The notes under the pieces: model-generated | Told to the model about the DNA's origin: nothing | The model's database searches: none | The model's input: the letters and a program-made list of their open reading frames with translations, nothing else | Source of the DNA: an uncultured Acidobacteriota bacterium | GTDB lineage: Bacteria; Acidobacteriota; Polarisedimenticolia; Polarisedimenticolales; DASRJG01 | Assembly (NCBI GenBank): GCA_964383585.1 | Contig: CAYLHQ010000001.1 | Span: 69,530-133,529, forward strand | Reading direction: 5' to 3' | Length of the DNA stretch: 64,000 nt | Shown here: positions 8,929-36,357 of the stretch, piece by piece | Layout of the letters: each line of letters begins with the position of its first letter | Numbering within the stretch: the stretch's first letter is position 1 | Translations under genes and position numbers: made by a program

Positions 8929-8981
8929 GCCGGTTTTCCGGCCCGGACTAGACGCGGCACGGGGGGCCTTCGTACCTACCC

Positions 8982-9581
8982 ATGCACGATGACGGTGCGA
9001 TCGGGGACTGGATCCGGGCTGCCGCCGGGGGGGACCGCGAAGCCTTCGCGGAGTTGGTCCGGGCGAAGCGGGCGCAGGTCGTCCGCACCGCGTTCCAGAT
9101 CACCGGCGACAGGGAGGACGCGCAGGATGTCGCCCAGGCGGTCTTTCTCCGGCTCTGGAAGGTTCTCCGCCGGTACGACCCCGGCCGCCGCTTCGACACC
9201 TGGCTTTACAGGATCACCGTGAACGCCGCGATCGACCATCTCCGCGAGCGCGGGCCGAGAGGGATCCTGCAGCCTCTGCCCGACGATCCGGCCCTCCTCG
9301 GCCGGACCGAGGGGACCGGACCGGAGCGCTCCCTCGATCTCGAAGCGCTCGAGCGCGCGTTCCTCCGCCTCGCGGCGGCGCTCGCCCCCAAGCAGCGCGC
9401 CGTCTTCGTCCTCCGAGAGATCGAGGGGAGGGAGACGGCCGAGATCGCGGAGGCCCTCGGGGTGACGGAGTCGACCGTCCGGAACCATCTCCATCAGGCC
9501 CGTCGGATCCTCCGCGAGGGACTCGAACGCGACTACCCGGGACTGCTCCCGGGCGGTCGGAAGGAAAAGGGGCGGTCGTGA
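8982..9581 (+). CDS. ECF (group 4) RNA polymerase sigma factor
   Basis: Region 2 (DAQDVAQAVFLRLW...RFDTWLYRITVNAAIDHLR) and region 4 (LAPKQRAVFVLREIEGRETAEIAEALGVTESTVRNHLHQARR). Confidence 0.9.
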   Translation: MHDDGAIGDWIRAAAGGDREAFAELVRAKRAQVVRTAFQITGDREDAQDVAQAVFLRLWKVLRRYDPGRRFDTWLYRITVNAAIDHLRERGPRGILQPLPDDPALLGRTEGTGPERSLDLEALERAFLRLAAALAPKQRAVFVLREIEGRETAEIAEALGVTESTVRNHLHQARRILREGLERDYPGLLPGGRKEKGRS

Positions 9582-10051
9582 GCATCCACCCGGACATCCG
9601 CGCCGCGCGCTCCGCGTTCGCACGCCGCGAGTGCCTCCGCCACATGGCGACCTGCGCGGAGTGCCGCGCGTCCGCCGCCTCCGGCGATCCGTCGGCCTTG
9701 TTCGCCCTCCTCGTGCTCCGCGAACCGGACGACGAAGCGCTCGAGGAGGTCTCGCGATCGGTCGCGGCCCGGGTCGCCGTCGAGCGCCGCTCCGTCCTCG
9801 ACGCGTGGAGCGAGAGAGGATTGCCGCGGTTCCTTCCTGCGGCGATCGCCGCCTCCGCCGGGCTGGCCTTCCTCCTCGCGGGGCTCCTCGGCCCCGTTCC
9901 CCCGGGACCCCACGCACCGGAGTTCGCGAGCGCGGACGTGCGCCGCGCCGACGTCCGCCTGACCGAGACCGTCGGGCCGGCCCAAGTCGTCGACCTGACC
10001 GTCGGAAACACCCAGGTCGTGATGATCTTCGCCGCGGAGATCGACCTGTGA
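9578..10051 (+). CDS. Anti-sigma factor, zf-HC2 (ZAS-like), single-pass membrane protein
   Basis: The start overlaps the sigma gene stop (GTGA). H-x3-C-x2-C motif (HMATCAEC), one TM segment (FLPAAIAASAGLAFLLAGLL) and a predicted outside domain of about 50 aa. Confidence 0.65.
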   Translation: MSIHPDIRAARSAFARRECLRHMATCAECRASAASGDPSALFALLVLREPDDEALEEVSRSVAARVAVERRSVLDAWSERGLPRFLPAAIAASAGLAFLLAGLLGPVPPGPHAPEFASADVRRADVRLTETVGPAQVVDLTVGNTQVVMIFAAEIDL

Positions 10052-10758
10052 GCCGGGCGGTGGCGATCGCGACCGCGCTCGCCCTCTGCGGGTCCGCGCT
10101 CGCGAGGGAACCGGCCGACCCCGTCGAGGCACGCGCCTTCGAGATCCAGTTCCGCTCCCTCGCGGAGGCGTCGGATCTCGTGACCCCGCTCCTTTCGGCC
10201 GACGGGAGCGTCACCCTTCAGCCGCGCCTCGGCATCCTCACGGTTCAGGACCGGCGGAGCGTCCTCGAACGGATCGACGCGGTGCTCGACGATTTCGACG
10301 TCGCCCCGCGGAATGTCGAGGTCACCGTTGGCCTCTTCCTGGGCACCGACCGGCGCGACGCCGAGGCGGGGCGGGGCGCGGCGGAGGCGGTTCCATCGCG
10401 GGAGGTCCGCGGCGTGAGCGAGACGCTCGGCGACTTCACGAAGTGGAACGCCTACAGCCCCCTCGGCAGCCGCTCCGTCACCGCGGCGGAGGGGAGCCGC
10501 GTCGAGGTGCCCATCGGGGACGACTACCGCATCGCCTACGGGATCGAGGCGGTTCAGGAGCGGGGCGGAGGAACCAACGCGATGCTCCGGGGATTCACCT
10601 TGGAGCGTAGGACCGGCCCGCCGGACGCCCCGGTGTGGAGGCTCGTGTACCGGGCCGACATCCTCCTCCCTTCGGGGCGGATGCTCGTCGTGGGAGCCGC
10701 CCAGAACCCGGAGTCGAAGAAGGCGCTATTCGTGACGCTGAAGGCGGAGGCGAGGTAG
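10048..10758 (+). CDS. Secreted protein with a secretin N-domain (NolW-like) fold signature, a 'mini-secretin'
   Basis: GTG at 10048 overlaps the anti-sigma stop. Signal peptide AIATALALCGSALA. FEIQFRSLAEASDLVTPLLSADGSVTLQPRLGILTVQDRRSVLERIDAVLDDFD resembles a GspD/PilQ N1 domain. About 150 aa of beta-rich sequence follow, ending in ALFVTLKAE. Confidence 0.4.
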   Translation: MSRAVAIATALALCGSALAREPADPVEARAFEIQFRSLAEASDLVTPLLSADGSVTLQPRLGILTVQDRRSVLERIDAVLDDFDVAPRNVEVTVGLFLGTDRRDAEAGRGAAEAVPSREVRGVSETLGDFTKWNAYSPLGSRSVTAAEGSRVEVPIGDDYRIAYGIEAVQERGGGTNAMLRGFTLERRTGPPDAPVWRLVYRADILLPSGRMLVVGAAQNPESKKALFVTLKAEAR

Positions 10759-10760
10759 GA

Positions 10761-11978
10761 ATGCCGGAGTTCTGGTGCAAGATGGCCCTGCCGACCGGCG
10801 AAATCGTCGAGCGGGTCATGAACGCAGCGGACGAGTCGGTTCTCCGCAGGGACCTCGATTCGAAGGATTGCCTACTCCTGGACGTCAGGCGGCGAAACCC
10901 CCTCGTCGTCGCGCTGGGCGAGACCTTCCGGATCCGGCCGCGCGTCCACGCGCGGGAGTTCCTTTTCTTCAACCAGGAGTTCTCCGCCCTCATTCGCGCC
11001 GGCCTCCCGATCCTCGCGAGCCTCGACATCCTGATCGAGCGCCGCACGAACCCGACGTTCAAGCGGGCGCTCCTCGACATCCGCGACCGGGTGAAGGGGG
11101 GGGAGGCGTTGTCGGAGGCCTTCGCCGCCCAGGGAGGGCTCTTCCCGCCGCTTTACGCGTCGAGCCTCGCCTCCGGGGAGCGCTCGGGGGAGCTGCCGAC
11201 GGTCCTCAAGCGCTACATCGCCTACACGAGGAACATCCTCGCCATCCGGAAGAAGGTCACGTCCGCGCTCGTCTACCCGGCCATCCTCATGGCGCTCTCG
11301 GTCGTGCTGATCGCGATCATGGTCTTTTACGTGATCCCGAACTTCAGCGGGTTCCTGAGCGAGTTGGGGGTCGACCTCCCGGTGATCACGCAGATCATCA
11401 TGGCGGCCTCCCTCGCCCTCCGGGACAACCTCCCGCTCATCGCGGTGTCGCTCGTCGCGGCGGTCGTCGGGCTCCTCGTCTGGCGGCGCGCCGGCGCCGG
11501 CAGGGTCGCCGTCGACCGCTTCAAGCTGAGGCTCCCGCTCCTGGGGAGCGTGGCGCACGACTACGCGCAAAACCGGTTCACGCGGACGCTCGCGACCCTC
11601 GTCTCGGGCGGGATTCCCCTCGTCGTGTCGATCGAGCTCGCCGCCCGGGCCGTCGGGAACGCCTTCTACGAGCAGGAAATGCTCAAAGTCTCCGGTAAGG
11701 TCCGCGAGGGGCAGGCGCTCTGGGAGTCGCTCGAGCAGTCGGGGCTCGTCTCCGACATCGCGGTCGAGATGGTCAAGGTCGGCGAGTCGACCGGCGCACT
11801 CGTCGAAATGCTCGACAATACGTCGGAATTCGCCGAGGAGGAGATCGACTACCGGCTCAACAAGCTCGTGACCCTGATCGAGCCGCTCATGCTGATCTTC
11901 ATGGCGCTCGTCGTGACGGGGATGCTCCTGGCCTTCTACCTCCCGCTCATCCGGGCGGCCGCCGGTTCCCGGTTCTAG
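10761..11978 (+). CDS. pilC: Type IV pilus / T2SS inner-membrane platform protein (PilC/GspF family)
   Basis: Two GspF repeats (FFNQEFSALIRAGLPILASLDIL... and FTRTLATLVSGGIPLVVSIELA...) with three TM segments. Confidence 0.9.
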   Translation: MPEFWCKMALPTGEIVERVMNAADESVLRRDLDSKDCLLLDVRRRNPLVVALGETFRIRPRVHAREFLFFNQEFSALIRAGLPILASLDILIERRTNPTFKRALLDIRDRVKGGEALSEAFAAQGGLFPPLYASSLASGERSGELPTVLKRYIAYTRNILAIRKKVTSALVYPAILMALSVVLIAIMVFYVIPNFSGFLSELGVDLPVITQIIMAASLALRDNLPLIAVSLVAAVVGLLVWRRAGAGRVAVDRFKLRLPLLGSVAHDYAQNRFTRTLATLVSGGIPLVVSIELAARAVGNAFYEQEMLKVSGKVREGQALWESLEQSGLVSDIAVEMVKVGESTGALVEMLDNTSEFAEEEIDYRLNKLVTLIEPLMLIFMALVVTGMLLAFYLPLIRAAAGSRF

Positions 11979-11992
11979 GAAGGACGGACGCC

Positions 11993-13636
<1,644 letters not shown>

Positions 13637-13646
13637 CGGAGACACG

Positions 13647-14669
13647 TTGCGATTTCTCGACCCCATCCTCGCCCCCGTCCGGCGGCTCGGCCTCGAACGC
13701 CTGGTGGAGCTGCGGCCGGCATGGCCTCCGGTCGCGCTCGAGCTCGACCGGGGCGAGCTCGCGTGCGTGCGGGTCCGCCGGAAGGGCGGGAAGGCCGCCC
13801 TGGAGTCCCACGCGGTGCGGACCCTTCGTTCCCGTGCGGTCGGCGCTTCGATCTTCCGCCCGAACATGGGAGACCCGGAAGAGCTGGCGTCGAAGATCCG
13901 CGAGCTCCTCGAGGCGACCGGCACGAAACCGGGGAGAGTGTCCCTGGTCCTCCCGGACAACCTCGCGAAGGTCTCCATGGTCACTCTTCCCGAGCGGCCC
14001 GCGTCGAGGAAGCAATTGGACGAGGTGCTCCGCTTCAAGCTGCGGCGCTCGGTCCCGTTCCGCTTGGAGGACGCGGTCTTCTCGTGGCAAGTGATCCCCG
14101 ACGCGGCGCGCGAGACGACGGTCCTCGTCGCCGTGATGCTCCGGAGCGTCGTGGAGCAGTACGAGTCGGTCGTCGAATCGTTGGGGGCGAAGCCGGGTCT
14201 CGTCGACCTCTGCACGCCCGCGCTCTTCAACCTCTGCCGCGGAGACATGCTCGCGGCCTCCGCCGACGGCCAGGATGTCGCCCTCTTCAACGGCGCGCGA
14301 ACCTACTTCTCGCTTTTCATCGTGAGGCAGGGCAAACCCGTCTTTTTCCGCTGCAAGACCCTCCTCGCGAGGGACGACGACGAGACGCCGGCGGGGTTCT
14401 CCCATTCCGCCCTCTCGCGGGAACTCGTGACGTCGCTTTCCTACTACCAGGAGAAGCTGGGCGGCCAGGGAATCGGGACGACCTTCGTGCGCACCGTCTC
14501 CGAGCCGCTGGCGCGTCTGACGGAGATCCTGGAGCGCTCGGGGTTCGGGCGGGCGCTTCCGGTCGACCCCGCGGCGGCGCTCTCGCTCGGCGAGGGGCTC
14601 CGGCTCGACCCGGAGATGGCCCAGCGGATCGCGCCCGCGGTCGGCGCGGCCGCGGGGAGGGCGGCATGA
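13647..14669 (+). CDS. pilM: PilM-like actin-fold pilus assembly protein
   Basis: 340 aa cytoplasmic protein located immediately after PilB and before PilN/PilO. It shows the PilM-type pattern (LVLPDNLAKVSMVTLP...LRFKLRRSVPF). Confidence 0.6.
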   Translation: MRFLDPILAPVRRLGLERLVELRPAWPPVALELDRGELACVRVRRKGGKAALESHAVRTLRSRAVGASIFRPNMGDPEELASKIRELLEATGTKPGRVSLVLPDNLAKVSMVTLPERPASRKQLDEVLRFKLRRSVPFRLEDAVFSWQVIPDAARETTVLVAVMLRSVVEQYESVVESLGAKPGLVDLCTPALFNLCRGDMLAASADGQDVALFNGARTYFSLFIVRQGKPVFFRCKTLLARDDDETPAGFSHSALSRELVTSLSYYQEKLGGQGIGTTFVRTVSEPLARLTEILERSGFGRALPVDPAAALSLGEGLRLDPEMAQRIAPAVGAAAGRAA

Positions 14670-15373
14670 TCCCGGCGCTCGAGCTCAACCTCGCGACGCG
14701 GCCCTTCCGAAACAACGTTCCGCTCTGGATCGCGTACGGGGTCGGCGCGGCGTTCGTCCTCGGGTTCTCCGCATGGAACCTGTGGACCGCGATCGACCAG
14801 GCGCGCCGGCTCGCGGATCTCCGCGAGAGCATGTCCGTGATCGAGGCGAAGCTCGCCGATCTCGATGCGCGCGAGGCGAAGGCCCTCGCCGAGATCGCGA
14901 AGATCGACGTCGAGGCGCTCGCGATCCGGGCCGAGCGCGCGAACGACGTGATCGACCGGCGCGCCCTGTCTTGGACCCGGCTGTTCAACCGGATGGAGGA
15001 AGTGCAGCCCTACGAGGTTCGAATGGTCTCGATCCGGCCGGTCTACGCGGGGGGAGCACCGCAGCCGGGTCGCGACGCCGCCCCCGACGGCACCGTCCCG
15101 GTCGCGGTCGAGGGCGCCGCGCAAAGCCTCGAGGCGTTTCTCGAGTTCGAAAGGGAACTCGTGATGGACCCGCACTTCGCCCAGGTCGAGCCGGAGCGGA
15201 CGCAGATCGTGGAGGGCGGCGAGGTCCTTTTCACGCTGAACTTCCTGTACGACCCGGAGGGGAGGCTCGGAAGCGCCGGCCCGATCAAGCTCCCTCCGGT
15301 CCTTCCGGCCGTCGCGGAACTGGAGGCCGAGGAGGCCGCCGAGCGTGGCGGCGCCCCGGGGAAGGCGCCGTGA
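14666..15373 (+). CDS. pilN: PilN-like bitopic pilus alignment protein
   Basis: ATGA overlap with pilM. N-terminal LNLATRPFRN motif, one TM segment, a coiled coil and a C-terminal ferredoxin-like region. Confidence 0.6.
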   Translation: MIPALELNLATRPFRNNVPLWIAYGVGAAFVLGFSAWNLWTAIDQARRLADLRESMSVIEAKLADLDAREAKALAEIAKIDVEALAIRAERANDVIDRRALSWTRLFNRMEEVQPYEVRMVSIRPVYAGGAPQPGRDAAPDGTVPVAVEGAAQSLEAFLEFERELVMDPHFAQVEPERTQIVEGGEVLFTLNFLYDPEGRLGSAGPIKLPPVLPAVAELEAEEAAERGGAPGKAP

Positions 15374-15996
15374 CCCCCCGCCGCGCGCGCTTCGACATCC
15401 GGGAATCGGGACGGGCGATCGGCGCGTTCCTCGGGATCGGTCTCCTCGCGAATCTCCTGATCTTCACGCTGTGGATCCGGCCCCGGGAGAGGCACTTCGA
15501 TGCCCTCGATGCGGACGGCCGGCCTCGACTCGAGACCCTCAAGCGGCGGGAGGCCGCGGTCGAGGCCCGCGAGGCGTACCTCCAGGCGCTCCGGGACGCC
15601 GAGGCGAGCCTCGAGACGCTCCGGACGGACGTCCTCGCGACACGCGACCGCAGGATGATCGCGACCCAGCTCGAGATCGCGAGACTCGCGCGCGAGTTCG
15701 GGGTCGCCCTCGAGAGGATCCAGTACGAGAACGACATCCTCTCGGCGGAGGCGATCGAGCGGTTCGGCATGGTCGTGCCTCTCGAGGGGGGGTACGCGAA
15801 CCTCCGGAAGTTCATCCAGGCCGTCGAGGGATCCGACCGGTTCTTCGTGGTCGAACGCGTCGCCCTCGCGCAGGGGGAGGAAGGGGGCAGCGTCCTCCAG
15901 CTGAACATCACCCTCGCCACCTATTTCGATCATCCGCCGTCGCGCGAGGCGCGCGAGCGGGAGGAGCGGCGGCCGGTCCGGAGGAGATCCCGCTGA
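15370..15996 (+). CDS. pilO: PilO-like bitopic pilus alignment protein
   Basis: GTGA overlap with pilN. One TM segment, a long coiled coil, and a C-terminal region (VPLEGGYANLRKFIQAVEGSDRFFVVERVAL) typical of PilO/GspM. Confidence 0.55.
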   Translation: MTPRRARFDIRESGRAIGAFLGIGLLANLLIFTLWIRPRERHFDALDADGRPRLETLKRREAAVEAREAYLQALRDAEASLETLRTDVLATRDRRMIATQLEIARLAREFGVALERIQYENDILSAEAIERFGMVVPLEGGYANLRKFIQAVEGSDRFFVVERVALAQGEEGGSVLQLNITLATYFDHPPSREAREREERRPVRRRSR

Positions 15997-16628
15997 TGGC
16001 GAGGACCCTGAGCGGTCGCGAGAAGCGCCTCCTCGGCGCCCTTGCCGCGGCGACGGCGCTCTTCGTGTGGTGGCAGTGGTCGGGTGACGCCCCGGTCTCC
16101 CCGCAGGGCTCCGGCGCGGCGGTGGCGGACGCCGGAGCGCTCGACGCGCCTCCCCGAGTGAGGATGGACCTCCTCGCGCGGCAAGCGGAGGTCTACGACG
16201 GCAAGGGGCGCGACCTCTTCAAGTACGCGCCGCGGCCCCCGAGTCCAGCCGAGCTGCGCCGGCTCCGCGCGGAGGCGGAAGCCGCCCGCCGCGCCGAGGA
16301 GGAGGCCCGGAAGCGCGCGGAAGAAGAAGCGCGCCGCCGCGCGGAGGAAGAGGCGAGGCGCCAGGAGGAGTACGCGCGGAATCCGCCGCCTCCTCCCAAG
16401 CCGCAGCCGCCGGCGATCACCTTTCGCTACATCGGGAACTTCGGGCCGAAGGAGGAGCGGATCGTGGCGTTCGACGACGGCAAGGGGGTGTTCGTCGCCC
16501 GCGTCGGCGAGATCGTCCGGGAGCAGTTCCGCGTCGTGGACGTCAAGCACAACGCGGTCGTCATGGGGTACACGCGGCCGGAGTTCCAATCACAGGTCAA
16601 GGAGCTCCCTCTCTCGGGGGGGCGCTGA
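15996..16628 (+). CDS. PilP/GspC-HR-like protein with a charged repeat and a proline-rich linker
   Basis: N-terminal TM segment, a (RAEEEARR)n repeat, PPPPPKPQPP, and a C-terminal beta domain ITFRYIGNFGPKEERIVAFDDGKGVFVARVGEIVREQFRVVDV. Confidence 0.5.
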   Translation: MARTLSGREKRLLGALAAATALFVWWQWSGDAPVSPQGSGAAVADAGALDAPPRVRMDLLARQAEVYDGKGRDLFKYAPRPPSPAELRRLRAEAEAARRAEEEARKRAEEEARRRAEEEARRQEEYARNPPPPPKPQPPAITFRYIGNFGPKEERIVAFDDGKGVFVARVGEIVREQFRVVDVKHNAVVMGYTRPEFQSQVKELPLSGGR

Positions 16629-16638
16629 GGGCTCGGGG

Positions 16639-19056
16639 ATGAACTTGCACGCGATGCGGTGGACGAAGGCGGGGGCGGTGCTGATCGCGCTGGCGCTGGC
16701 GGCGGGTTGCGCCGCCCAGAAAGCGTATCAGCGCGCGGAAAAGGACGCCGGGCGCCAGAACTGGGACGCGGCGGTGCTCGGGTACAGCAAGGCGCTCGCC
16801 CTCGATCCCGGAAACACCCGGTACGGCGTCGCCCTCGAGCGAGCGAAGCTCAAGGCGTCGGCCGTGCACTTCCAGAAGGGGAAGCGCTACGCCCAGGGAC
16901 AGCAGTGGGAACTCGCGGCGGCGGAGTACCAACAGACCGTCCTCTTGAACCCGGGGAACCAGCACGCCCAGAACGAGCTCGAGAAGGCGCTCGTCGAGAT
17001 CGCGCGCCGCACCGACGGTCCCTCCGAGCTCGACCGGCTCAAGGAGAAGGCCCGGCGGGAAGCCCTCGCGCCGCCCAAGCTCTCGCCCAAGAGCAACATC
17101 CCGATCCTGCTCCAGTTCCGTGACCAGCCGCTCGGGAAGATCCTGGAGGGGATCAGCAAGGCCTCGCAGATCAACTTCATCTTCGACGACAAGGTCGACC
17201 TGAACAAGCCGATGACGATCGACATCGGGAACGTCACGATGGAGAAGGCGCTCGACATCCTGATGCTGCAGACGAAGAACTTCTACAAGGTGATCGACGA
17301 GAACACGCTGCTCATCGCCCCCGACCAGCGCCAGAAGAGGCAGGAACTGGACGACCAGGTGATCCGGACCTTCTACCTCTCGAACGGAGAGACGAAACAG
17401 GTGGTTTCGGTCCTCCGCACCCTCCTCAACGCGAGGCAGGTGGCCGAGAACGACACTCTGAACGCGGTCACGATCAAAGACACGCCCGACAAGGTCGCGA
17501 TCGCGGAACGGATCGTCGCCGCGAACGACAAGTCGAAGGGGGAAGTGATCGTCGACGTCGAGCTCCTCGAGATCAACCGGGCGACCGCGCAGAACCTCGG
17601 GATCGACCTCACGACGAAGACCTTGGTGCTCCGCTTCCAGGACGGCGACCGGCGCGTGGAGCTCAACAACCTCGATCAGCTCCGTCAGCAGGGGAACTGG
17701 TCGATCGGCCCGATCCCGTCGGTCGTCATCAACTTCCTCAAGACCGACTCGGACAGCAAGACGATCGCGAAGCCGCAGCTCCGCGTGACCGAAGGCGAAA
17801 AGGCGGAAGTCCTCATCGGGAACCGGGTCCCGATCCCGACCACCTCGTTCAACACCTCTCAGACCGTCGGCGGGAACATCGTGCCGATCACCTCCTTCAC
17901 GTACCAGAACGTCGGAATCACCCTCGGGATCGAGCCGCGCGTCCACCACAACAAGGAGATCACGCTCAAGGTCAAGACCGAGGTGAGCCAGATCGCGGGC
18001 TACGTCGAGGTCGAGAACAGCGCCGCCCAGCCGATCATCGGCACCCGGCAGATCGAAACGACGATCCGGCTCCGGGACGGCGAGACGAACCTCCTCGCCG
18101 GGCTCATCCGTCGCGAGGACCAGGACTCCCGAAGCGGGGTCGTCGGGCTGATCGACACCCCGGGGCTCGGGAGGATCTTCAGCAACAACCAGACGAACCT
18201 CCAAGAAACCGACATCATCTTGACGCTCACCCCGTACATCGTCCGGATCCCCGATATCACCGAGGAGGACTTGACGACCCTGTGGGTCGGGACCGAGGAG
18301 AACATGCGGCTCCGAGGTCCGGTCCGCGGCGTCCTCGGCGTTTCTCCGTTCGCGCCGGACGAGACCCCCGCCGAGGCTCCCGCCGCCGACGCGGCGCCCC
18401 GATCCACGGGTGCGGCGCTGCCCCCGCTGCCCGAGGAGACGACCGGCGGCGGGATCGTCGCGTCGACGCGTGCCCCGGGCGAGCCGCCGCCGCCGGCGCC
18501 GGAGATCGAGGAACCTCCTCCGTCCGCCCCCCCGGGGGAGTTCCCGGGGGAGGACGACGAGGGTCTCGAGATCCCCTCCGCCCCTCCCGGCGAGACGCCT
18601 TCCGAGCGGGAAGACGCCGGGGCCGTTCCGACGGGCCCGGCGACGGTCCGCATGATCCCGGGAGCCCCGTCCTATCGCGTCGGCGACCTCGTGACCGTCG
18701 AGGTGCGGATCGAGAACGCGAGCAACGTCGGGTCGGTGCCGTTCCACCTCCAGTTCAACCGGCAGGTGCTCGAATACGTCGGCCCCGCGGTCGAGGGGCC
18801 ATTTCTTTCCTCGGACGGGGCGAGCACGGTCTTCCTCGCGAATCCGTCCCAAGGAGGGACGAGCGTCGTCGTCGGGGCGTCGCGTCTCGGCGCGGGGGAA
18901 GGGGTCTCCGGGGCGGGGTCCCTCGCGACCTTCCAGTTCCAGGCCGTGAACCCCGGCGACGCCGGATTCGCGTTCACGGGGGCGAGCGTGAAGGACCCGC
19001 AGGCGAGAAACCTGCCCGCCAACTTCGTGGCGGCCCCCGTGAGGGTGGAGCCGTGA
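16639..19056 (+). CDS. pilQ: Secretin (PilQ/GspD family) lipoprotein with N-terminal TPRs and a C-terminal Pro-rich linker plus cohesin-like domain
   Basis: Lipobox LALAAGC. TPR-like repeats at roughly 16700-17000. N0/N1 domains. Secretin core ending GLGRIFSNNQTNLQETDIILTLTPYIVR. P/A/E-rich linker at roughly 18300-18640. Cohesin-like module from about 18643 (VGDLVTVEVRIENASNVGSVPFHLQFNRQVLEYVG...GSLATFQFQAVNPGDAGFAF). Confidence 0.9.
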   Translation: MNLHAMRWTKAGAVLIALALAAGCAAQKAYQRAEKDAGRQNWDAAVLGYSKALALDPGNTRYGVALERAKLKASAVHFQKGKRYAQGQQWELAAAEYQQTVLLNPGNQHAQNELEKALVEIARRTDGPSELDRLKEKARREALAPPKLSPKSNIPILLQFRDQPLGKILEGISKASQINFIFDDKVDLNKPMTIDIGNVTMEKALDILMLQTKNFYKVIDENTLLIAPDQRQKRQELDDQVIRTFYLSNGETKQVVSVLRTLLNARQVAENDTLNAVTIKDTPDKVAIAERIVAANDKSKGEVIVDVELLEINRATAQNLGIDLTTKTLVLRFQDGDRRVELNNLDQLRQQGNWSIGPIPSVVINFLKTDSDSKTIAKPQLRVTEGEKAEVLIGNRVPIPTTSFNTSQTVGGNIVPITSFTYQNVGITLGIEPRVHHNKEITLKVKTEVSQIAGYVEVENSAAQPIIGTRQIETTIRLRDGETNLLAGLIRREDQDSRSGVVGLIDTPGLGRIFSNNQTNLQETDIILTLTPYIVRIPDITEEDLTTLWVGTEENMRLRGPVRGVLGVSPFAPDETPAEAPAADAAPRSTGAALPPLPEETTGGGIVASTRAPGEPPPPAPEIEEPPPSAPPGEFPGEDDEGLEIPSAPPGETPSEREDAGAVPTGPATVRMIPGAPSYRVGDLVTVEVRIENASNVGSVPFHLQFNRQVLEYVGPAVEGPFLSSDGASTVFLANPSQGGTSVVVGASRLGAGEGVSGAGSLATFQFQAVNPGDAGFAFTGASVKDPQARNLPANFVAAPVRVEP

Positions 19057-19544
19057 CCTCGAAACCGCGTTCGCTCGCGCGATCGTCGCGGGGGCTCACC
19101 CTCGTCGAGCTCGTCGCCGCCTCGGCGGTCATGGCGATCCTGGCCGCGATCACTCTCCCGGTCGCGGCGACGATGGTGAAGCGGCAGAAGGAACTCGAGC
19201 TGCGCCGGAACCTCCGGACGATCCGGGAAGCGATCAACCGGTTTCACGACGACGTGGAGCGCTACCCGGGAATGCGCCAGAAGCTGAACGCGGTCAACGA
19301 GGACGGGTATCCGGAAGAGCTGGAGCACCTGTACGAAGGGTTCGACATCGGCGACGCGAAGGGGACCAAGCTCAAGTACTTGAGGCGCCTTCCCCGCGAT
19401 CCGATCACGGGGAAGGCGGAGTGGGGAACGCGCTCGAGCCGCGACCGGCCGGGCTCCGCGTTCTCGGACGGGATCAACGTGTTCGACGTATATTCGAAGA
19501 GCGACAAGACCGCTCTGGACGGGACCCCGTATGCGACGTGGTGA
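19053..19544 (+). CDS. Prepilin-type pseudopilin (GspG-like)
   Basis: GTGA overlap with the secretin gene. Class III signal ...SSRG/LTLVELVAASAVMAILAAI with Glu at +5. Contains YLRRLPRDPITG, a GspG-like motif. Confidence 0.8.
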   Translation: MTSKPRSLARSSRGLTLVELVAASAVMAILAAITLPVAATMVKRQKELELRRNLRTIREAINRFHDDVERYPGMRQKLNAVNEDGYPEELEHLYEGFDIGDAKGTKLKYLRRLPRDPITGKAEWGTRSSRDRPGSAFSDGINVFDVYSKSDKTALDGTPYATW

Positions 19545-19935
19545 GCGTGGAGGGGAACGCGGATTCACCCTCATCGAGCTCCTGGTCGTCGTGGCGATCA
19601 TCGGGATCCTCGCGACGGTGGCGGTGGGGAACTACCGCAGGAGCATCCGGAAGGCGCAGGAGGCGGCGCTCGCGCAGAACCTCTACGTCATGAGGACCCA
19701 GATCAACAACTACTTCGCCGACAAGCAGCGGTATCCGTCCGACCTGCAGGCGCTCGTCGACGACCGGTACCTCCGCGACGTACCGGTCGACCCGATCACG
19801 GGGAGCCGGGATACCTGGATCACCGAACCGGCCGACATGGGAGAGGAAGACATCTCCACCGAGCCGGGGATTTCGGACGTCCGGAGCGGCGCGGAGGGGA
19901 CGTCGCTCGACGGGCGTCCGTACGCCGAATTTTGA
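19531..19935 (+). CDS. Prepilin-type major pseudopilin (GspG-like)
   Basis: MRRGERGGERG/FTLIELLVVVAIIGILATVAV is a canonical N-methylation site with Glu at +5. Contains YLRDVPVDPITG. Confidence 0.85.
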   Translation: MRRGERGGERGFTLIELLVVVAIIGILATVAVGNYRRSIRKAQEAALAQNLYVMRTQINNYFADKQRYPSDLQALVDDRYLRDVPVDPITGSRDTWITEPADMGEEDISTEPGISDVRSGAEGTSLDGRPYAEF

Positions 19936-19946
19936 AGGAGGTTTCG

Positions 19947-21119
19947 ATGCGACACCCCATTCGACGGGGATGGCCGACCGCGGCCCTCGTCCTCGCCGTT
20001 CTCGTCTCGGCGACGTCCTGCGAGGACTCCGACCTGACCGCCCCCGGGGACGGCTCGCTCACGCTCAAGGCGAACCCGTCCACGGTCGTCATCGACTCGA
20101 ACCGGCTCGTCGAGGACCCCCCCGGCTCGGGAATCTTCGTGCCGCAGACGAAGGGCTCGACGACGCTGATCGCGCAGGTCTTCGACGCCGAGGGGAGGGC
20201 CCTTCCGAACATCGCGGTCCTCTTCACGACGTCGGCCGGAACGCTCAGCACCGGGGGGCAGGGGGGAGATCCGGTTTCGCCGGTGGAGACCGACCAAAAC
20301 GGGATCGCGCAGGCGGTTCTCACGATCGCCTCGACCGACCCCGCGGACATCTTGGTACGGGCCACGTCGTCCGCCCTGACGACCGAGATCACCGTGAAGA
20401 GGAGCCTCGTCGCGGCCAACCAGCCGCCGACCGCGGTCGTGATCGCGGCTCCGCAAAACAAGCAGGCGATCGGCGAGCCCGTCGTCTTCGACGGGACCTC
20501 GTCGCTCGATCCGGACGACGACCTGATCACCATGTACCGCTGGACGATCACCTCCACGAACCCCGACCCGGGAAGGGGGAACCCTTACGTGGTGGAAGAC
20601 CCGGCCGCGTCGGGGCTCGACCTCGTCTTCACGAACGTCCAGAACCTCGTCGTGACCCTCCAGGTCACGGACGATCCGGACGCGCAGCGCCTCAAGCAGC
20701 AAGGGTTCCCGATCCCATACAGTCCGAACCAGGACACGCTCCTCTACGAGATCCAGCGGTGCGCCGTGAACGAGGCGCCGATCGCTTCGATCGAGGGGAC
20801 CGACCCGATCCAGGCCTCCGCGGCCGCGGGACAGAACGTGACCGTCCCCCTCAACGGGTCGAACTCCCGCGACCCGGAGCAATTCCCTCTCGAGACGTAC
20901 ACCTGGACCTGCGGGAACAACTCCCTTCCCCAGGTTCAGGGGCAGCCGATCGTCGCATGCACGTACCGGGTGCAGAGCGTGGCGGTGGAGTACGAGGCGA
21001 CCCTCGTCGTGACCGACCGCGGTTCGACCGGGCAGATCGACCCCGTGCTCGGGACCTACTGCGACCAGAAGTCGTCGACGCCCGCGGTCCGGAAGATCCG
21101 GATCTCGCCGCTGCAATGA
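19947..21119 (+). CDS. Lipoprotein with a Big_1-like Ig domain and two PKD-like domains
   Basis: ATG at 19947 preceded by GGAGG. Lipobox LVSATSC. Ig-like segment (TLIAQVFDAEGRALPNIAVLFTTSAGTL...DQNGIAQAVLT). Two PKD-like segments (VVFDGTSSLDPDDDLITMYRWTI and VPLNGSNSRDPEQFPLETYTWTC). Confidence 0.65.
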   Translation: MRHPIRRGWPTAALVLAVLVSATSCEDSDLTAPGDGSLTLKANPSTVVIDSNRLVEDPPGSGIFVPQTKGSTTLIAQVFDAEGRALPNIAVLFTTSAGTLSTGGQGGDPVSPVETDQNGIAQAVLTIASTDPADILVRATSSALTTEITVKRSLVAANQPPTAVVIAAPQNKQAIGEPVVFDGTSSLDPDDDLITMYRWTITSTNPDPGRGNPYVVEDPAASGLDLVFTNVQNLVVTLQVTDDPDAQRLKQQGFPIPYSPNQDTLLYEIQRCAVNEAPIASIEGTDPIQASAAAGQNVTVPLNGSNSRDPEQFPLETYTWTCGNNSLPQVQGQPIVACTYRVQSVAVEYEATLVVTDRGSTGQIDPVLGTYCDQKSSTPAVRKIRISPLQ

Positions 21120-21796
21120 AGCGGCGGGGTGAGCGCGGCGGCGTCCTCGCGGCCCTCATGGTCGCGATCGCCGTGATGGGGATCCTGACGGCGGTCGCGG
21201 CGCAGTGGTGGTCCGACGTCAAGCGGCGGGACGACGAGGCGGAGATGATCTTCCGGGCGCGCGAGATCGCGCGCGGGATTCTCGCTTACCGGAAAGACCG
21301 GGGCGCGCTCCCCACCAAGCTCGAGCAGCTCCTGGAGCCGGGGAACAAGGGGCAGTACTTCTTGCGGAGGGAGTACAAGGATCCGCTCGTCAAGGACGGG
21401 AAGTGGGGCCTTCTCTTCGCCGGTCCGGCGGGAAACGTGTTCGACCCCAACTCCTCGACGCCGCTCGACCCGGGACAGCTCCCCATGGGCGAAGCGCCGG
21501 CGCAGGACAATCCCGGCGGGCTCGGGACGCTCCAGCGGAGCGCGGGATCGGGCCAGGAAGTCGGGGGCCTCCCGATCGTGGGCGTGAAGTCACTCTGCAA
21601 GGACGAGCCCTTCCGGATCCTCGACGAGAAGACGAAGTACGCCGACTGGCAGTTCCACATCTTCCAGCTCGAGGGGACCGCGGGACAGCCGGGAGCGCCG
21701 GGTCAGCCCGGAAGGCCCGGGAGGCCGGGCGGGGGCCGGCCCGGTTCCCCCGCGGGGGTGCGGCCGGGCGGCGGCGTTCCGGGAAGCGGGAACTGA
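21116..21796 (+). CDS. Pseudopilin-like protein (no Glu+5) with a collagen-like Gly-X-Y / Gly-Pro-rich tail
   Basis: ATGA overlap with the upstream gene. MKRRGERGG/VLAALMVAIAVMGILTAV is a pilin-like hydrophobic N-terminus. The C-terminus reads GQPGAPGQPGRPGRPGGGRPGSPAGVRPGGGVPGSGN. Confidence 0.45.
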   Translation: MKRRGERGGVLAALMVAIAVMGILTAVAAQWWSDVKRRDDEAEMIFRAREIARGILAYRKDRGALPTKLEQLLEPGNKGQYFLRREYKDPLVKDGKWGLLFAGPAGNVFDPNSSTPLDPGQLPMGEAPAQDNPGGLGTLQRSAGSGQEVGGLPIVGVKSLCKDEPFRILDEKTKYADWQFHIFQLEGTAGQPGAPGQPGRPGRPGGGRPGSPAGVRPGGGVPGSGN

Positions 21797-33090: not shown

Positions 33091-35103
33091 TCACGGACAG
33101 CCGGCTGTTTCCCGCGGGGCGCAGGCGAGCGGCGAGGCCGGGCGGGGTCCCCACGAGGAGCGGCCGAGAAGCCCCTCGTTCCCCCCTGCGACGGGAGCGG
33201 CGAGGAAGTAACGATCGCCGGGGGCCGGGACGAAGGTGTGCGCGCGATCGGCCCCCGCGGCGCAGGTGACCGGGGCGTGCTCCCACTTCATCGCGCGGAG
33301 CGATTCGAGGCTCCCCTCGTACACGGCGAAGTCGGTCGCCTCCGTCGAGCAGGACGGTCCCCAGGCGAGGACGACTGCTCCGCCCTCACCCCGCTCCACG
33401 CTCAGCGCTCCCCCACCTCCCTCGGGAAGCGCTCCGGCCAACGCCGGAGCGGCGAGGATTTCGAACGAGGCGTCCGACGCGTCCCCCGAGCAGGACGAGG
33501 GGTACGGCGCCGGGGTGGGAACGACGCGGTTCGGCCGGATCACGCGCAGTCGGTTCTGCGTTCCGGGAACGTTCGGAACGATCCAGTCGTGGCTCCCGTC
33601 GTTGGCGATCCCCGAGGCGACCGGGGTCCACGCGACCCCGCCGTTCGAGGACCACTCGAGGCCCACCGTGCCCTTGTCCGGTCCGGTTTCGAGGGAAGAC
33701 GTCCACGCGACCGTCCGCGTCTCTCCCGCGCGCCAGGTCTCCCCGCCGTTCGGAGCGGTCAGAGCGAGGAGGTGGGGGTAGTGGCAGTGCGCGCCGTCCC
33801 GGTCGTCCTCTCCGAGGCGGGCCCCACGGCCGCCGCCGTAGGCGTAAGACCGCATCGTCGCGTCGGCGACCGAGGAGTGCCCGAAACCGAGGCCGTGCCC
33901 GAGTTCGTGGGTCGCGACCTCGGCGAGGTTCTCGGCGTTCCCGAGGAAGCACTCGAAACGGTCATTGAAGATGACGTAGAGGCGAAGCGCCGGGTAGAAC
34001 GTGACGTTGTTGACCGTTCCCGAAAGGGTCCCCGACCGCCAGTAGCCGCCGATCGCGAGGGTCCCGGAACAGCCCGAGGGGTCGGTGATGTCCCCGTAGG
34101 GGTCGCCGAAGAGGACGACGTTCGACGGGGGATACGCCTTCGCGGGGCTCTGGGCGCCGCTTCCCGTGAAGTCGGCGTTCTCGTTGCCGGGGGAGACGAG
34201 AAGACGCGACTCCGGGACGTCGGACCATGCCGCCATGGCCCGGCGGATCTGGAGCACCGCCGCCGCGTCGTCCGCAAGCGGGTTCCGGTCGGGCTCGACG
34301 TTCACGATCACCGCCTGGCCCGTGTCGATCGAGGTCCATCGCACCGGCGCGCCGGAGTGGAGAGGCGCGAACGCCGGATCGGAAGACGACAAGGGGCGGG
34401 CTCCGTCGAGAGTTCGGATCCGTTCGCCCGTGCGGAGCGGCGGAGGAGCCTCGCCTCGGTCGTCCCAGAGAAGCCGGTCGTACTCCGGCGGGACGAGTCT
34501 GCCTTCCTCCGGCGAGCGACCGGAGTTTTCGGGTCCGCCGGAATCCGATCGCGGGAATGCCGCCGCACGCGTTCGTTGCCGCGAGGAGGCGGCGATCAGG
34601 TCCCGTACGCGGAACGATTCGAAATCCCGCTCCGTGGGTCTTCCGAAGATCGTCCCCTGGCCGCCGAGGTCGCGCACCGCGCGATCGGGGCGGGCGTCCC
34701 CGACCGGATCGAGCGAGAACTTGCCGAAGAACTCGAAGGCGGTCCGCGGCGCGCCGTCGGGGCCGAGCGTCACGAACACGAAGACGCGCTCTCCGGGGCG
34801 ATAGGAAGGGACGGCGTCGGTTTCGTGGACGATCTCGCCGAAGCGTCCCCCCCGCTCCCGGAGGACGATTCTCGTAATCCCCGCCGGACCCTTGTGCGAA
34901 CGCTCGACGTCGAGGGTGACGTAGGTCGACACCGAGCCGGTTTCCGGATCGTAACCCGAGGCGACGGCGCCGACCGTCGCCTCCACGGCGATCGGGGCGC
35001 GCTCGGCGAGGCGCTCGACCGGGACGTAGATCGAAACGGCGGCCCCGGCCGGAATCGCGGCGAAAAGGACACCGATCCAGCCGGTCGTCGTGAGGCGCGG
35101 CAC
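33091..35103 (-). CDS. Secreted metzincin (M10 matrixin-like) zinc metalloprotease with C-terminal beta-sandwich domains
   Basis: HELGHGLGFGH (HExxHxxGxxH). Likely GTG start at 35103 preceded by GGAGG, followed by a signal-like segment WIGVLFAAIPAGAAVS. The longest ORF start is 35172. Confidence 0.8.
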   Translation of the reverse strand: MPRLTTTGWIGVLFAAIPAGAAVSIYVPVERLAERAPIAVEATVGAVASGYDPETGSVSTYVTLDVERSHKGPAGITRIVLRERGGRFGEIVHETDAVPSYRPGERVFVFVTLGPDGAPRTAFEFFGKFSLDPVGDARPDRAVRDLGGQGTIFGRPTERDFESFRVRDLIAASSRQRTRAAAFPRSDSGGPENSGRSPEEGRLVPPEYDRLLWDDRGEAPPPLRTGERIRTLDGARPLSSSDPAFAPLHSGAPVRWTSIDTGQAVIVNVEPDRNPLADDAAAVLQIRRAMAAWSDVPESRLLVSPGNENADFTGSGAQSPAKAYPPSNVVLFGDPYGDITDPSGCSGTLAIGGYWRSGTLSGTVNNVTFYPALRLYVIFNDRFECFLGNAENLAEVATHELGHGLGFGHSSVADATMRSYAYGGGRGARLGEDDRDGAHCHYPHLLALTAPNGGETWRAGETRTVAWTSSLETGPDKGTVGLEWSSNGGVAWTPVASGIANDGSHDWIVPNVPGTQNRLRVIRPNRVVPTPAPYPSSCSGDASDASFEILAAPALAGALPEGGGGALSVERGEGGAVVLAWGPSCSTEATDFAVYEGSLESLRAMKWEHAPVTCAAGADRAHTFVPAPGDRYFLAAPVAGGNEGLLGRSSWGPRPASPLACAPRETAGCP

Positions 35104-35181
35104 GCGTTCACCTCCGTCGCGGGTCCGCTCTCCGCGGACCGTTCCGGGGGGATGGTGCAAGCGCCGGACCACGGACCCCCG

Positions 35182-36357
35182 TCACCGCGCCAGGGAGCCC
35201 TCGAGGTAGTGCGCGATGCGGTCGAGCGTCTCCCGGGAGCGGCGGGAGTTGTGGCCCTCCCCCGCGAGGGGAACGAAGGTCACCGGTCCCCGCGCGGCGC
35301 CGACGAGCCGCCGGGCGTGCTCGATCGGGACGAGACCGTCCGAGTCGCCGTGTAGGAGGAGGGCGGGGACGGCAACCTCGGCGATCGCCCGCTCGGGCAC
35401 GAGCGAACCGGGGTCGAACGCCGCCCGCCAGCCGGCGACGCGGAAGATCACGGGGCGCAGGAGCGAGGCCGGGAGATGACGCCGCGTCACGGCGCGATCG
35501 ACGACGTCGGCGAGATCCGCGAACGGGCTGTCGAGCACGAGGACGCGGATCTTGGGCTCCCGGGACGCCGCGACGATCGCCGCGACCGCCCCCATGCTCT
35601 TCCCGACGACTCCGATGCGGTCCGGGTCGACCTCCTCGCGCCCCGCGAGCCAGTCGATCCCCGCGAGGAGGTCTCCCGCCTCCCTTGCGCCGAGGGTGAT
35701 GACGTCGCCGTCGCTGTCCCCGCGGCCGGCGAAGTCGAGAAAGAGCTGGGCAATCCCCGCTTCGTGAACGCGTCGGGCGAGGGGGAGCCACTGCCTTCGA
35801 TCGGAGCCGTTGCCATGCCCGTAGACCACCGCCGGCGCGCGCCCGCCTCCGGTCCCGGGAGGGGGAACGTACCAGCCCCGGAGCGTGAGCCCCGCCGGGT
35901 TCGGAAAGGCGACCGTCTCGAACGGGACCCCTTCCTCTTCGGGCGAGATCGCCCGCGCCTCGGATCGGACGTTCACGAGAATCGCCGACTCGGTTCCTCC
36001 GGGACCCGGCCGCCTCGCCTCGATCGTGAACGCGGCTCCGGCGGGGGCAGCCGACACGGCATTCGAAAACGCCTCGATCGAGGGAGCCTCCATGGCGTCG
36101 AGGCGGACGATGCGGTCTCCCGCCCGGAGGCCGGCCCGCTCGGCCGGTCCGAACGCCCGCTCGACGTGAAGACCTCCCTCCGGGGCTTCGCGGAGAGCGA
36201 GGCCGAGCACGGGGCGCGCCGAGGTCGAGATGCGCGGTCGCGGAGGGGCGACCATGAGATTCGACATCCCGACGAGAAAGGCGCACAGGACGACGACGAG
36301 CACGCCGAGAAGCGCGAGCCCCAGGTCGAACCTCGTGAAACCGACCTTTCTCCTCAA
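35182..36357 (-). CDS. Membrane-anchored PDZ domain plus alpha/beta-hydrolase (S9/DLH-like) protein
   Basis: N-terminal TM segment. PDZ-like GPAERAGLRAGDRIVRLD. Nucleophile elbow GKSMG. C-terminal LLLHGDSDGLVP...GEGH. Confidence 0.7.
   Translation of the reverse strand: MRRKVGFTRFDLGLALLGVLVVVLCAFLVGMSNLMVAPPRPRISTSARPVLGLALREAPEGGLHVERAFGPAERAGLRAGDRIVRLDAMEAPSIEAFSNAVSAAPAGAAFTIEARRPGPGGTESAILVNVRSEARAISPEEEGVPFETVAFPNPAGLTLRGWYVPPPGTGGGRAPAVVYGHGNGSDRRQWLPLARRVHEAGIAQLFLDFAGRGDSDGDVITLGAREAGDLLAGIDWLAGREEVDPDRIGVVGKSMGAVAAIVAASREPKIRVLVLDSPFADLADVVDRAVTRRHLPASLLRPVIFRVAGWRAAFDPGSLVPERAIAEVAVPALLLHGDSDGLVPIEHARRLVGAARGPVTFVPLAGEGHNSRRSRETLDRIAHYLEGSLAR

Follow-up and report, generated by a model that had tools for sequence, protein, structure and literature searches.

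A lipoprotein secretin of the Polarisedimenticolia with an N-terminal tetratricopeptide-repeat-like domain and a predicted C-terminal cohesin module

What is a cohesin-like module doing at the end of a secretin, and do the two belong to one and the same protein? The question is raised by a gene located at positions 16639-19056 (+) of a 64,000-nt stretch of DNA (hereafter the window) from an uncultured Acidobacteriota bacterium (Polarisedimenticolia; Polarisedimenticolales; DASRJG01), which corresponds to positions 69,530-133,529 of the forward strand of contig CAYLHQ010000001.1 in assembly GCA_964383585.1. The reading frame is open throughout and codes for an 805-residue secretin, in which an initial annotation had seen a lipobox, N-terminal tetratricopeptide repeats (TPR) and, downstream of the secretin core, a proline-rich linker followed by a cohesin-like domain. 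Our analysis indicates that this protein is the precursor of a lipoprotein composed of a TPR-like domain, an N0 and an N1 domain, the secretin barrel, a post-barrel segment, a tether and a module of predicted cohesin fold, and that this whole architecture is conserved.

Domain architecture of the secretin and integrity of its gene

The C-terminal module is encoded, together with the stop codon, by positions 18637..19056 (+; residues 667-805). Pfam analysis assigned residues 676-769 to the Cohesin family (PF00963; E 3.5e-7, 31.0 bits against a gathering score of 24.1). Modelling of the module alone (residues ~668-805) by AlphaFold2 with 46 homologues gave a predicted local distance difference test score (pLDDT) of 92 and a predicted template modelling score of 0.83, and the resulting model displays the nine-stranded beta-sandwich with jelly-roll topology that is characteristic of cohesins. 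All of the top 50 Foldseek matches in the PDB are cohesins, with template modelling scores (TM-scores) of about 0.6-0.8, the best match being 2xdh, a non-cellulosomal cohesin of Archaeoglobus fulgidus (E 1.7e-9, TM-score 0.69-0.77). Sequence searches of the PDB with the module likewise found cohesins best, whether with the single sequence or with a profile (best profile E 4e-9). By sequence and model the C-terminal module is thus a genuine cohesin fold, as the initial annotation had supposed from its strand pattern, with a size of ~138 residues rather than the ~135 given there. When the module alone served as the query of a word-index homology search, only short C-terminal fragments and lipoproteins were recovered, and no second copy of the cohesin was found within the window.

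The N-terminus of the protein reads ...LIALALAAGC-AAQKAY and carries a signal peptide with a lipobox (LAAGC-AAQKA; 16639..16710 (+), residues 1-24). Cys24, the predicted lipidation site, hardly varies across an alignment of 40 homologues, some of which are only ~30% identical. The TPR-like helical domain follows directly (16711..17016 (+), residues 25-126): although single TPR repeats (TPR_2) remained below the Pfam threshold, residues 25-150 matched consensus-TPR proteins of the PDB (E 2.8e-7), and the full-length AlphaFold2 model shows paired helices at residues 25-126 with pLDDT >90. The N0 (STN-type) domain (17104..17322 (+), residues 156-228) scored just under the Pfam cut-off (STN, residues 178-228, 26.5 bits against 28.4), and its fold, a beta-alpha pattern of mixed helix and strand, is present in the model. 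It is followed by a single ring-building domain, N1 (17359..17535 (+), residues 241-299; Pfam Secretin_N, residues 243-299, 32.1 bits against 28.2; residues 241-296 in the model), and by the beta-barrel with the gate region (17542..18246 (+), residues 302-536; Pfam Secretin, residues 367-536, E 5e-37, 127.5 bits against 27.5). N0 and N1 are the only domains of their kind N-terminal to the barrel, and no AMIN domain was found in the secretin by the Pfam scan, the TPR domain standing in that place. The lipobox, the TPR and the N0/N1 and secretin core regions of the initial annotation are all borne out by these results, with the precision that N1 is the sole ring domain.

Downstream of the barrel, at the position of the S-domain of other secretins, lies a conserved segment, IPDITEEDLTTLWVGTEENMRLRG (18247..18324 (+), residues 537-562), in which the model places two short helices (residues 542-555). 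The tether that separates this segment from the cohesin (18325..18636 (+), residues ~563-666) is ~105 residues long and rich in P, A, E and G (P26 A16 E15 G13), and it varies in length among homologues. Judged by third-position GC, the coding frame of the window gene is kept across it. The model is disordered at residues 556-666 (pLDDT 29-48) and resumes as a well-folded beta domain at residues 668-805. The linker had been correctly described as P/A/E-rich; its length had been slightly overestimated at about 110 residues.

With its C-terminal barrel domain preceded by N0 and ring-building N domains, the protein belongs to the secretin superfamily (PF00263). Foldseek comparison of the barrel retrieved PilQ, BfpB, InvG and GspD structures with E 1e-19 to 1e-15. 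Among NCBIfam models, GspD (TIGR02517) scored best, with 147.5 bits against an equivalog cut-off of 351, and the N0-N1-N2-N3 plan of that family is absent; PilQ (TIGR02515) came second, with 111.8 bits against 284. Assignment of the secretin to type II secretion systems (T2SS) or to type IV pili by fold search was uninformative, as PilQ, BfpB, InvG and GspD all matched to a similar degree and the NCBIfam scores fell under every equivalog cut-off.

Could the C-terminal extension be an artefact, in which a frameshift, a misassembly or a read-through has fused the secretin gene with a separate cohesin gene? The initial annotation had itself raised this possibility; stand-alone cohesin genes do exist, and a few long- or short-read assemblies of homologues contain frameshifts or an in-frame stop (L022, L030, L033, L040). 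However, the gene of the window forms a single unbroken frame of constant codon bias, with a third-position GC content of 0.87-0.97 in the secretin frame across positions 16500-18900, linker and cohesin included. Moreover, the identical protein, residue for residue, was called on five contigs, including one of 657 kb, that come from separate assemblies, and the fusion is retained in most of the best homologues, at 26 loci of a genome scan and in distantly related secretins (see below). We therefore rejected frameshift and misassembly, and regard an artefactual fusion as having practically no chance of being the right explanation. The ATG start codon is preceded by a Shine-Dalgarno-like GGGGA, and the TGA stop codon overlaps the GTG start codon of the downstream pilin gene (GTGA), thereby embedding the cohesin-coding end in the operon. 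The secretin gene is translationally coupled to the next gene, which we count as further evidence that it is real.

Distribution and conservation of the fusion

A precomputed Cohesin match was present in 100 of the 120 best full-length homologues, which are 60-95% identical to the window secretin and 771-960 residues long (most about 780-850). A genome scan with the module, carried out on one genome per species, recovered 31 loci, nearly all from Acidobacteriota metagenome-assembled genomes (MAGs); three are labelled only 'bacterium' and one Chloroflexota. Many are labelled Candidatus Polarisedimenticolaceae or Polarisedimenticolia (gp22), including Ca. Polarisedimenticola svalbardensis. The secretin core lies in the same open frame as the module at 26 of the 31 loci, the other five being a cut C-terminal fragment (L013), two frameshifted assemblies (L022 and L030), a free cohesin (L029) and a weak Chloroflexota match. 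Most of the gene order from the gene for an extracytoplasmic function (ECF) sigma factor to purB is kept in about 20 loci. The fusion, whose spread the initial annotation had left to be surveyed, is thus widespread: found at 26 scan loci and in at least 100 homologues, it is how this secretin normally occurs throughout class Polarisedimenticolia and not a peculiarity of one genome. Among the homologous loci, frameshifts occur in long-read MAGs at L022, L030 and L033, and the secretin-cohesin gene of a farmland-soil contig (L040:354-2786) contains one in-frame stop (...AND-stop-SRGE...) that splits it into calls of 300 and 505 residues; this stop is either a sequencing error or the mark of a pseudogene.

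The same plan of lipobox, TPR, secretin, low-complexity tether and cohesin recurs in secretins that are only ~30-40% identical to that of the window (L032, P0345, P0354 and P0330). P0330 is 41% identical and has an acidic tether. P0354 is 30% identical, and at its locus (L036) the genes for GspG, GspF and GspE are followed in turn by four small genes, the secretin gene and pilin genes. P0345 (locus L035) and the L032 secretin, 31% and 29% identical, respectively, are encoded by orphan genes (L035:7402-12370 and L032:5609-10351) preceded by genes for an ECF sigma factor, a zf-HC2 anti-sigma factor and a TPR plus LptD_N/OstA-like protein. P0363, from Terriglobia-type Acidobacteria, is a TPR-secretin with neither lipobox nor cohesin that ends in a Pro-rich C-terminal tail of ~130 residues; its gene (L042/L043:1-11055) stands alone beside two multicopper oxidase genes and a gene for a 2,977-residue protein without Pfam match.

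Column conservation was identical for the cohesin and the barrel (0.81 each) and nearly so for the TPR domain (0.80), and it was highest of any region in the post-barrel segment (0.89). In the tether, which measures 47-139 residues among homologues, it fell to 0.41. Judging from the alignment, purifying selection acts on the cohesin as strongly as on the barrel, with the tether free to vary, a pattern typical of functional domains that are held by a leash.

Public pipelines label the homologues 'cohesin domain-containing protein' or 'general secretion pathway protein D', the latter being the JGI name, so that the fusion is already visible in databases. No paper describing or discussing a secretin-cohesin fusion was found by full-text literature searches that included the Polarisedimenticola papers and their supplements. 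The nearest literature is a preprint on giant genes of Omnitrophota, which concerns only T2SS-like loci adjoining dockerin-rich giant genes.

Related cohesins and possible roles of the module

A profile search with the cohesin against 1.84 billion representatives returned 11,301 proteins at E ≤ 1e-3, 212 of them at E ≤ 1e-30. The best non-secretin relatives include multi-cohesin scaffoldin-like proteins, several with Dockerin_1 in the same chain and some with sorting tails of the type IX secretion system (T9SS); lipoproteins of ~170-190 residues that consist of a signal peptide, a lipobox, a short linker and one cohesin; and proteins of ~340-390 residues, anchored in the membrane at the N-terminus, in which a long low-complexity linker leads to one cohesin. 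A single cohesin tethered to the membrane is a recurring theme of this wider family. The anchored form (P0263-P0347) is abundant, with a linker of ~200 residues and a C-terminal cohesin of the same subfamily, and one such gene (L044:722-1801) is preceded by that of a lipoprotein homologous to one encoded upstream of the L029 cohesin. At least two Asp/Glu residues come right after the lipidated Cys in 12 of 29 stand-alone cohesin lipoproteins (C-DDDD, C-DHDD, C-EDDG; e.g. P0241, P0256, P0197 and P0180). This acidic patch is absent from the secretin (C-AAQK) and from the cohesin lipoproteins encoded inside the operon (C-GSN), a difference that may reflect different sorting, either to inner-membrane retention or to surface export.

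Those operon-embedded lipoproteins, of ~180 residues each, are found at three loci (P0191 at L040:3698-4246, P0189 at L038:921-1466 and P0178 at L041:527-1084), where their genes lie between the second pilin gene and that of a PKD protein. They are 54-56% identical to the window module. Since the upstream secretin of L040 retains its own cohesin, the operon-embedded lipoprotein is an added paralogue and not the product of a split gene. We thus rejected the idea that the stand-alone cohesin lipoproteins arose by gene fission ('Rosetta stone'), L040 having both forms and the other copies lying in unrelated contexts. The operon-embedded paralogue ties the cohesin module to the machine.

One candidate pairing of cohesin and dockerin emerged among the loci of the genome scan. 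In an Acidobacteriota MAG outside the syntenic group (L029), the gene for a free secreted cohesin, which shares 42% identity with the window module, is immediately followed by that of a 2,756-residue protein. The latter combines Peptidase_S8, fn3 and InhA-like MAM domains and bears a Dockerin_1 at its C-terminus (Pfam E 7e-10). By its sequence, the arrangement resembles a cohesin-dockerin gene pair of non-cellulosomal type, centred on a giant protease. Together with the gene for a weakly cohesin-like lipoprotein, the two genes form a row of three adjacent genes (L029:9146-18714).

How does this architecture compare with known secretins? TPR lipoproteins such as PilF and TadD pilot secretins and are needed at the inner leaflet of the outer membrane for secretin assembly (PMC10499894), and HxcQ pilots itself to the outer membrane through its N-terminal lipid anchor, according to a reference cited in PMC12475490. 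Like HxcQ, the 'liposecretin' of Pseudomonas aeruginosa, and like the lipoprotein secretins BfpB, which is among the best fold matches obtained here, and TcpC, the window secretin has a signal peptide and a lipobox Cys. None of these three is known to carry TPR after the lipidated Cys, or a C-terminal tether or cohesin. In PilQ with PilF, PilW or Tgl, and in RcpA with TadD, a lipoprotein of TPR fold is likewise tied to a secretin. PilQ also shares the layout of an extra N-terminal domain, N0, one ring domain and barrel, and the operon of the window has PilM-, PilN- and PilO-like genes. The window secretin differs in carrying the TPR lipoprotein in cis, as a fusion at its N-terminus, and in having no AMIN. 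It gave no PilF or TadD family match in Pfam or NCBIfam, and the likeness to these pilotins would be a functional analogy only.

At the other end of the protein, comparison with GspD and PulD suggests that the post-barrel C-terminus is a periplasmic interaction site in both cases, given that the S-domain binds a pilotin (PulS, AspS). However, the S-domain is a short helical peptide bound by the pilotin, whereas the window protein has a leash of ~105 residues and a folded module of 138; GspD and PulD have domains N0-N3, the window secretin only N0 and N1. The module itself shares its fold and PF00963 with non-cellulosomal cohesins (A. fulgidus 2xdh; cohesin-like modules of Clostridium perfringens) and with cellulosome-anchoring scaffoldins, in which, as here, one cohesin is held to the envelope by a flexible Pro-rich linker. 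In contrast with these, the anchor of the window cohesin is a secretin channel in a diderm and not an S-layer homology (SLH) domain, a sortase signal or a free protein, and the module is likely periplasmic. Neither is it a cellulosomal scaffoldin: there is a single cohesin, no SLH domain, sortase signal or carbohydrate-binding module, and no carbohydrate-active enzyme context around the gene.

We hypothesize that a type IV filament machine uses this protein as its outer-membrane secretin, in which the lipid anchor and TPR domain serve in cis as a pilotin and leashed periplasmic cohesins dock an exported ligand. We find this reading plausible, and it could equally well prove wrong. The lipid anchor and the TPR domain would together take the secretin to the outer membrane, combining by analogy the role of the HxcQ-type lipid anchor with that of the separate TPR lipoprotein (PilF, Tgl or TadD); this built-in pilotin is favoured by the precedents of PilF, TadD and HxcQ. 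No small pilotin-like gene was found in the operon by family searches. Secretins are 13-16-mers (PMC10499894), and their C-termini lie on the periplasmic side; each of roughly 12-16 subunits would thus dangle one flexibly leashed cohesin where the channel opens to the periplasm. Such a fringe of cohesins would offer docking sites at which a ligand becomes concentrated next to the channel. This ligand would most likely be a dockerin-type module on exported proteins, for example large secreted peptidases, and docking would either feed these proteins to the machine or retain them at the envelope. A docking role is favoured by the conservation of the cohesin, which equals that of the barrel, by the relatives that carry Dockerin_1 and by the L029 gene pair. 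Its most specific form, in which the cohesin-dockerin pair would be a modular address tag and the ring of secretin cohesins would capture folded dockerin-tagged exoenzymes (e.g. giant subtilases) in the periplasm for delivery to the channel or retention at its mouth, is speculative and seems to us rather unlikely.

Several observations weigh against this hypothesis. No dockerin was found in the 64-kb window by a six-frame regular-expression scan or with a dockerin hidden Markov model built from relatives, nor in ~30 syntenic loci with the same model, whose sole match was L029; a dockerin-like ligand, which the initial annotation had looked to the genome to provide, is therefore missing from the stretches searched. 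The L029 pair belongs to a different acidobacterial lineage, and its cohesin differs in the most conserved loop of the family (SVKDPQARN). Non-dockerin ligands are possible for cohesin folds. Near the secretin-cohesin genes of L032 and L035 there are no ATPase, platform or pilin genes, and from such orphan contexts of distant members it follows that any conserved ligand is not encoded beside the gene. TPR-secretins without cohesin, such as P0363, imply that the cohesin is dispensable for channel function as such. Finally, the periplasmic location of the cohesins is extrapolated from the topology of other secretins. The other partners that had been suggested for the cohesin, an adhesin or a pilotin substitute, gained no support in our analysis.

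The cohesin might instead be a structural or assembly element that binds another component of the envelope and braces or aligns the channel, much as AMIN domains anchor PilQ; candidate partners would be the PKD/Big_1 lipoprotein, the protein in PilP position, the Secretin_N-like protein, a pilin, the protein's own TPR domain or peptidoglycan. The module co-occurs with strictly syntenic machine genes across the class, the extra cohesin lipoprotein of the operon adjoins the PKD lipoprotein gene, the window holds no dockerin, and a secretin with only N0 and N1 and no AMIN would make good use of another anchoring device. On the other hand, the distant orphan fusions have none of those neighbours, stand-alone homologues lie in unrelated contexts, a variable leash of ~105 residues would make a poor brace, and the closest relatives are cohesin-dockerin proteins. 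We consider a structural role a possible but doubtful explanation. That the tether reaches outside the cell, where the cohesin would retain dockerin enzymes at the exit site in the manner of a cellulosome-anchoring scaffoldin, strikes us as improbable. Characterized cohesins, to judge from the PDB matches, have so far been found to work outside the cell, and among the relatives are multi-cohesin proteins of scaffoldin type, some of which carry T9SS sorting tails. The acidic patch in 12 of 29 stand-alone cohesin lipoproteins recalls surface-lipoprotein export signals, yet the operon-embedded copies begin with CGSN and lack it. The N-terminal membrane anchor of the ~350-residue homologues would put the module in the periplasm of a diderm, and the full-length AlphaFold2 model contains no transmembrane or beta-barrel element C-terminal to the secretin domain. 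Furthermore, the S-domain sits at the periplasmic outer wall of the barrel, and the C-terminus is periplasmic in all solved secretins (PMC10499894).

Recognition of folded substrates by T2SS-type machines, and the range of parts that a secretin can bear besides a short S-domain, are largely unexplained, and the secretin-cohesin fusion provides a testable handle on both. Each channel would bear a set of about a dozen docking modules of high-affinity type on leashes, an arrangement conserved across a class and recurring in distant relatives. Should exported hydrolases carry the ligand in the form of a dockerin, secretins and cohesin-dockerin toolkits would be linked in a new way, which could be put to use in engineering Gram-negative bacteria for secretion or surface display; and if the cohesin-dockerin pair acts as an address tag, a secretin-based secretion system would possess a substrate-recognition signal that is explicit and can be transplanted. 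The lipid anchor and TPR domain in cis would constitute a natural pilotin-secretin fusion, useful for studies of secretin targeting. If the cohesin merely braces the machine, it would be a modest addition to the accessory domains of secretins.

The surrounding gene cluster

The genes on the + strand around the secretin gene make up a type IV filament machine (T2SS- or type IVa pilus-like) that is claimed by no curated model of either system. The + strand cluster starts with the ECF sigma factor gene (8952-9581), which is followed by a small open reading frame. The first gene of the conserved cluster, just 5' of the GspF gene and syntenic in more than 20 loci, codes for a small secreted protein with a Secretin_N-like domain (10048..10758 (+); Pfam Secretin_N E 5e-5, under the cut-off). 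This protein consists largely of an N1-type domain, and a free-standing secretin N-domain is unusual. The gene for a GspF/PilC-type platform protein comes next (10761..11978 (+); Pfam T2SSF E 5e-56; NCBIfam GspF E 5e-86, under the equivalog cut-off), then that of a GspE/PilB-type assembly ATPase with an MshEN N-terminal domain (11993..13636 (+); Pfam T2SSE E 3e-132, MshEN E 5e-20), for which the PilB and GspE models score equally. Between the ATPase and secretin genes lie a PilM-like gene (13647-14669 (+); Pfam PilM_2, NCBIfam pilM), a PilN-like gene (14666-15373 (+)), a PilO/GspM-like gene (15370-15996 (+); Pfam PilO/T2SSM_b, NCBIfam GspM) and a gene for a Pro/Glu-rich protein in the PilP/GspC position (15996-16628 (+)). 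Gene calls and the frame plot also support these four genes.

Downstream of the secretin gene are two pseudopilin/pilin genes (19053-19544 and 19531-19935 (+); Pfam N_methyl, with weak GspG and PilA matches) and the gene for a lipoprotein with Big_1 and PKD domains (19947..21119 (+); Pfam PKD_4, K319L-like_PKD and Big_1), which is syntenic in most loci and whose product is a possible cargo or partner. The next gene (21116..21796 (+)), syntenic across the class, codes for a third pilin-like protein, which has a hydrophobic helix at its N-terminus and for which family searches found no match. This protein ends in a collagen-like Gly/Pro-rich tail (GQPGAPGQPGRPGRPGGGRPG...). The genes 3' of it code for an M16 peptidase, Dut, a protein of metallo-beta-lactamase fold, PurB and PurF. 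Elsewhere in the window (33091-36357 (-) and 44445-45947 (-)) are encoded a 693-residue matrixin (M10) protein, an adjoining PDZ plus S9/S15-type peptidase and a second ATPase of the T2SSE family (500 residues).

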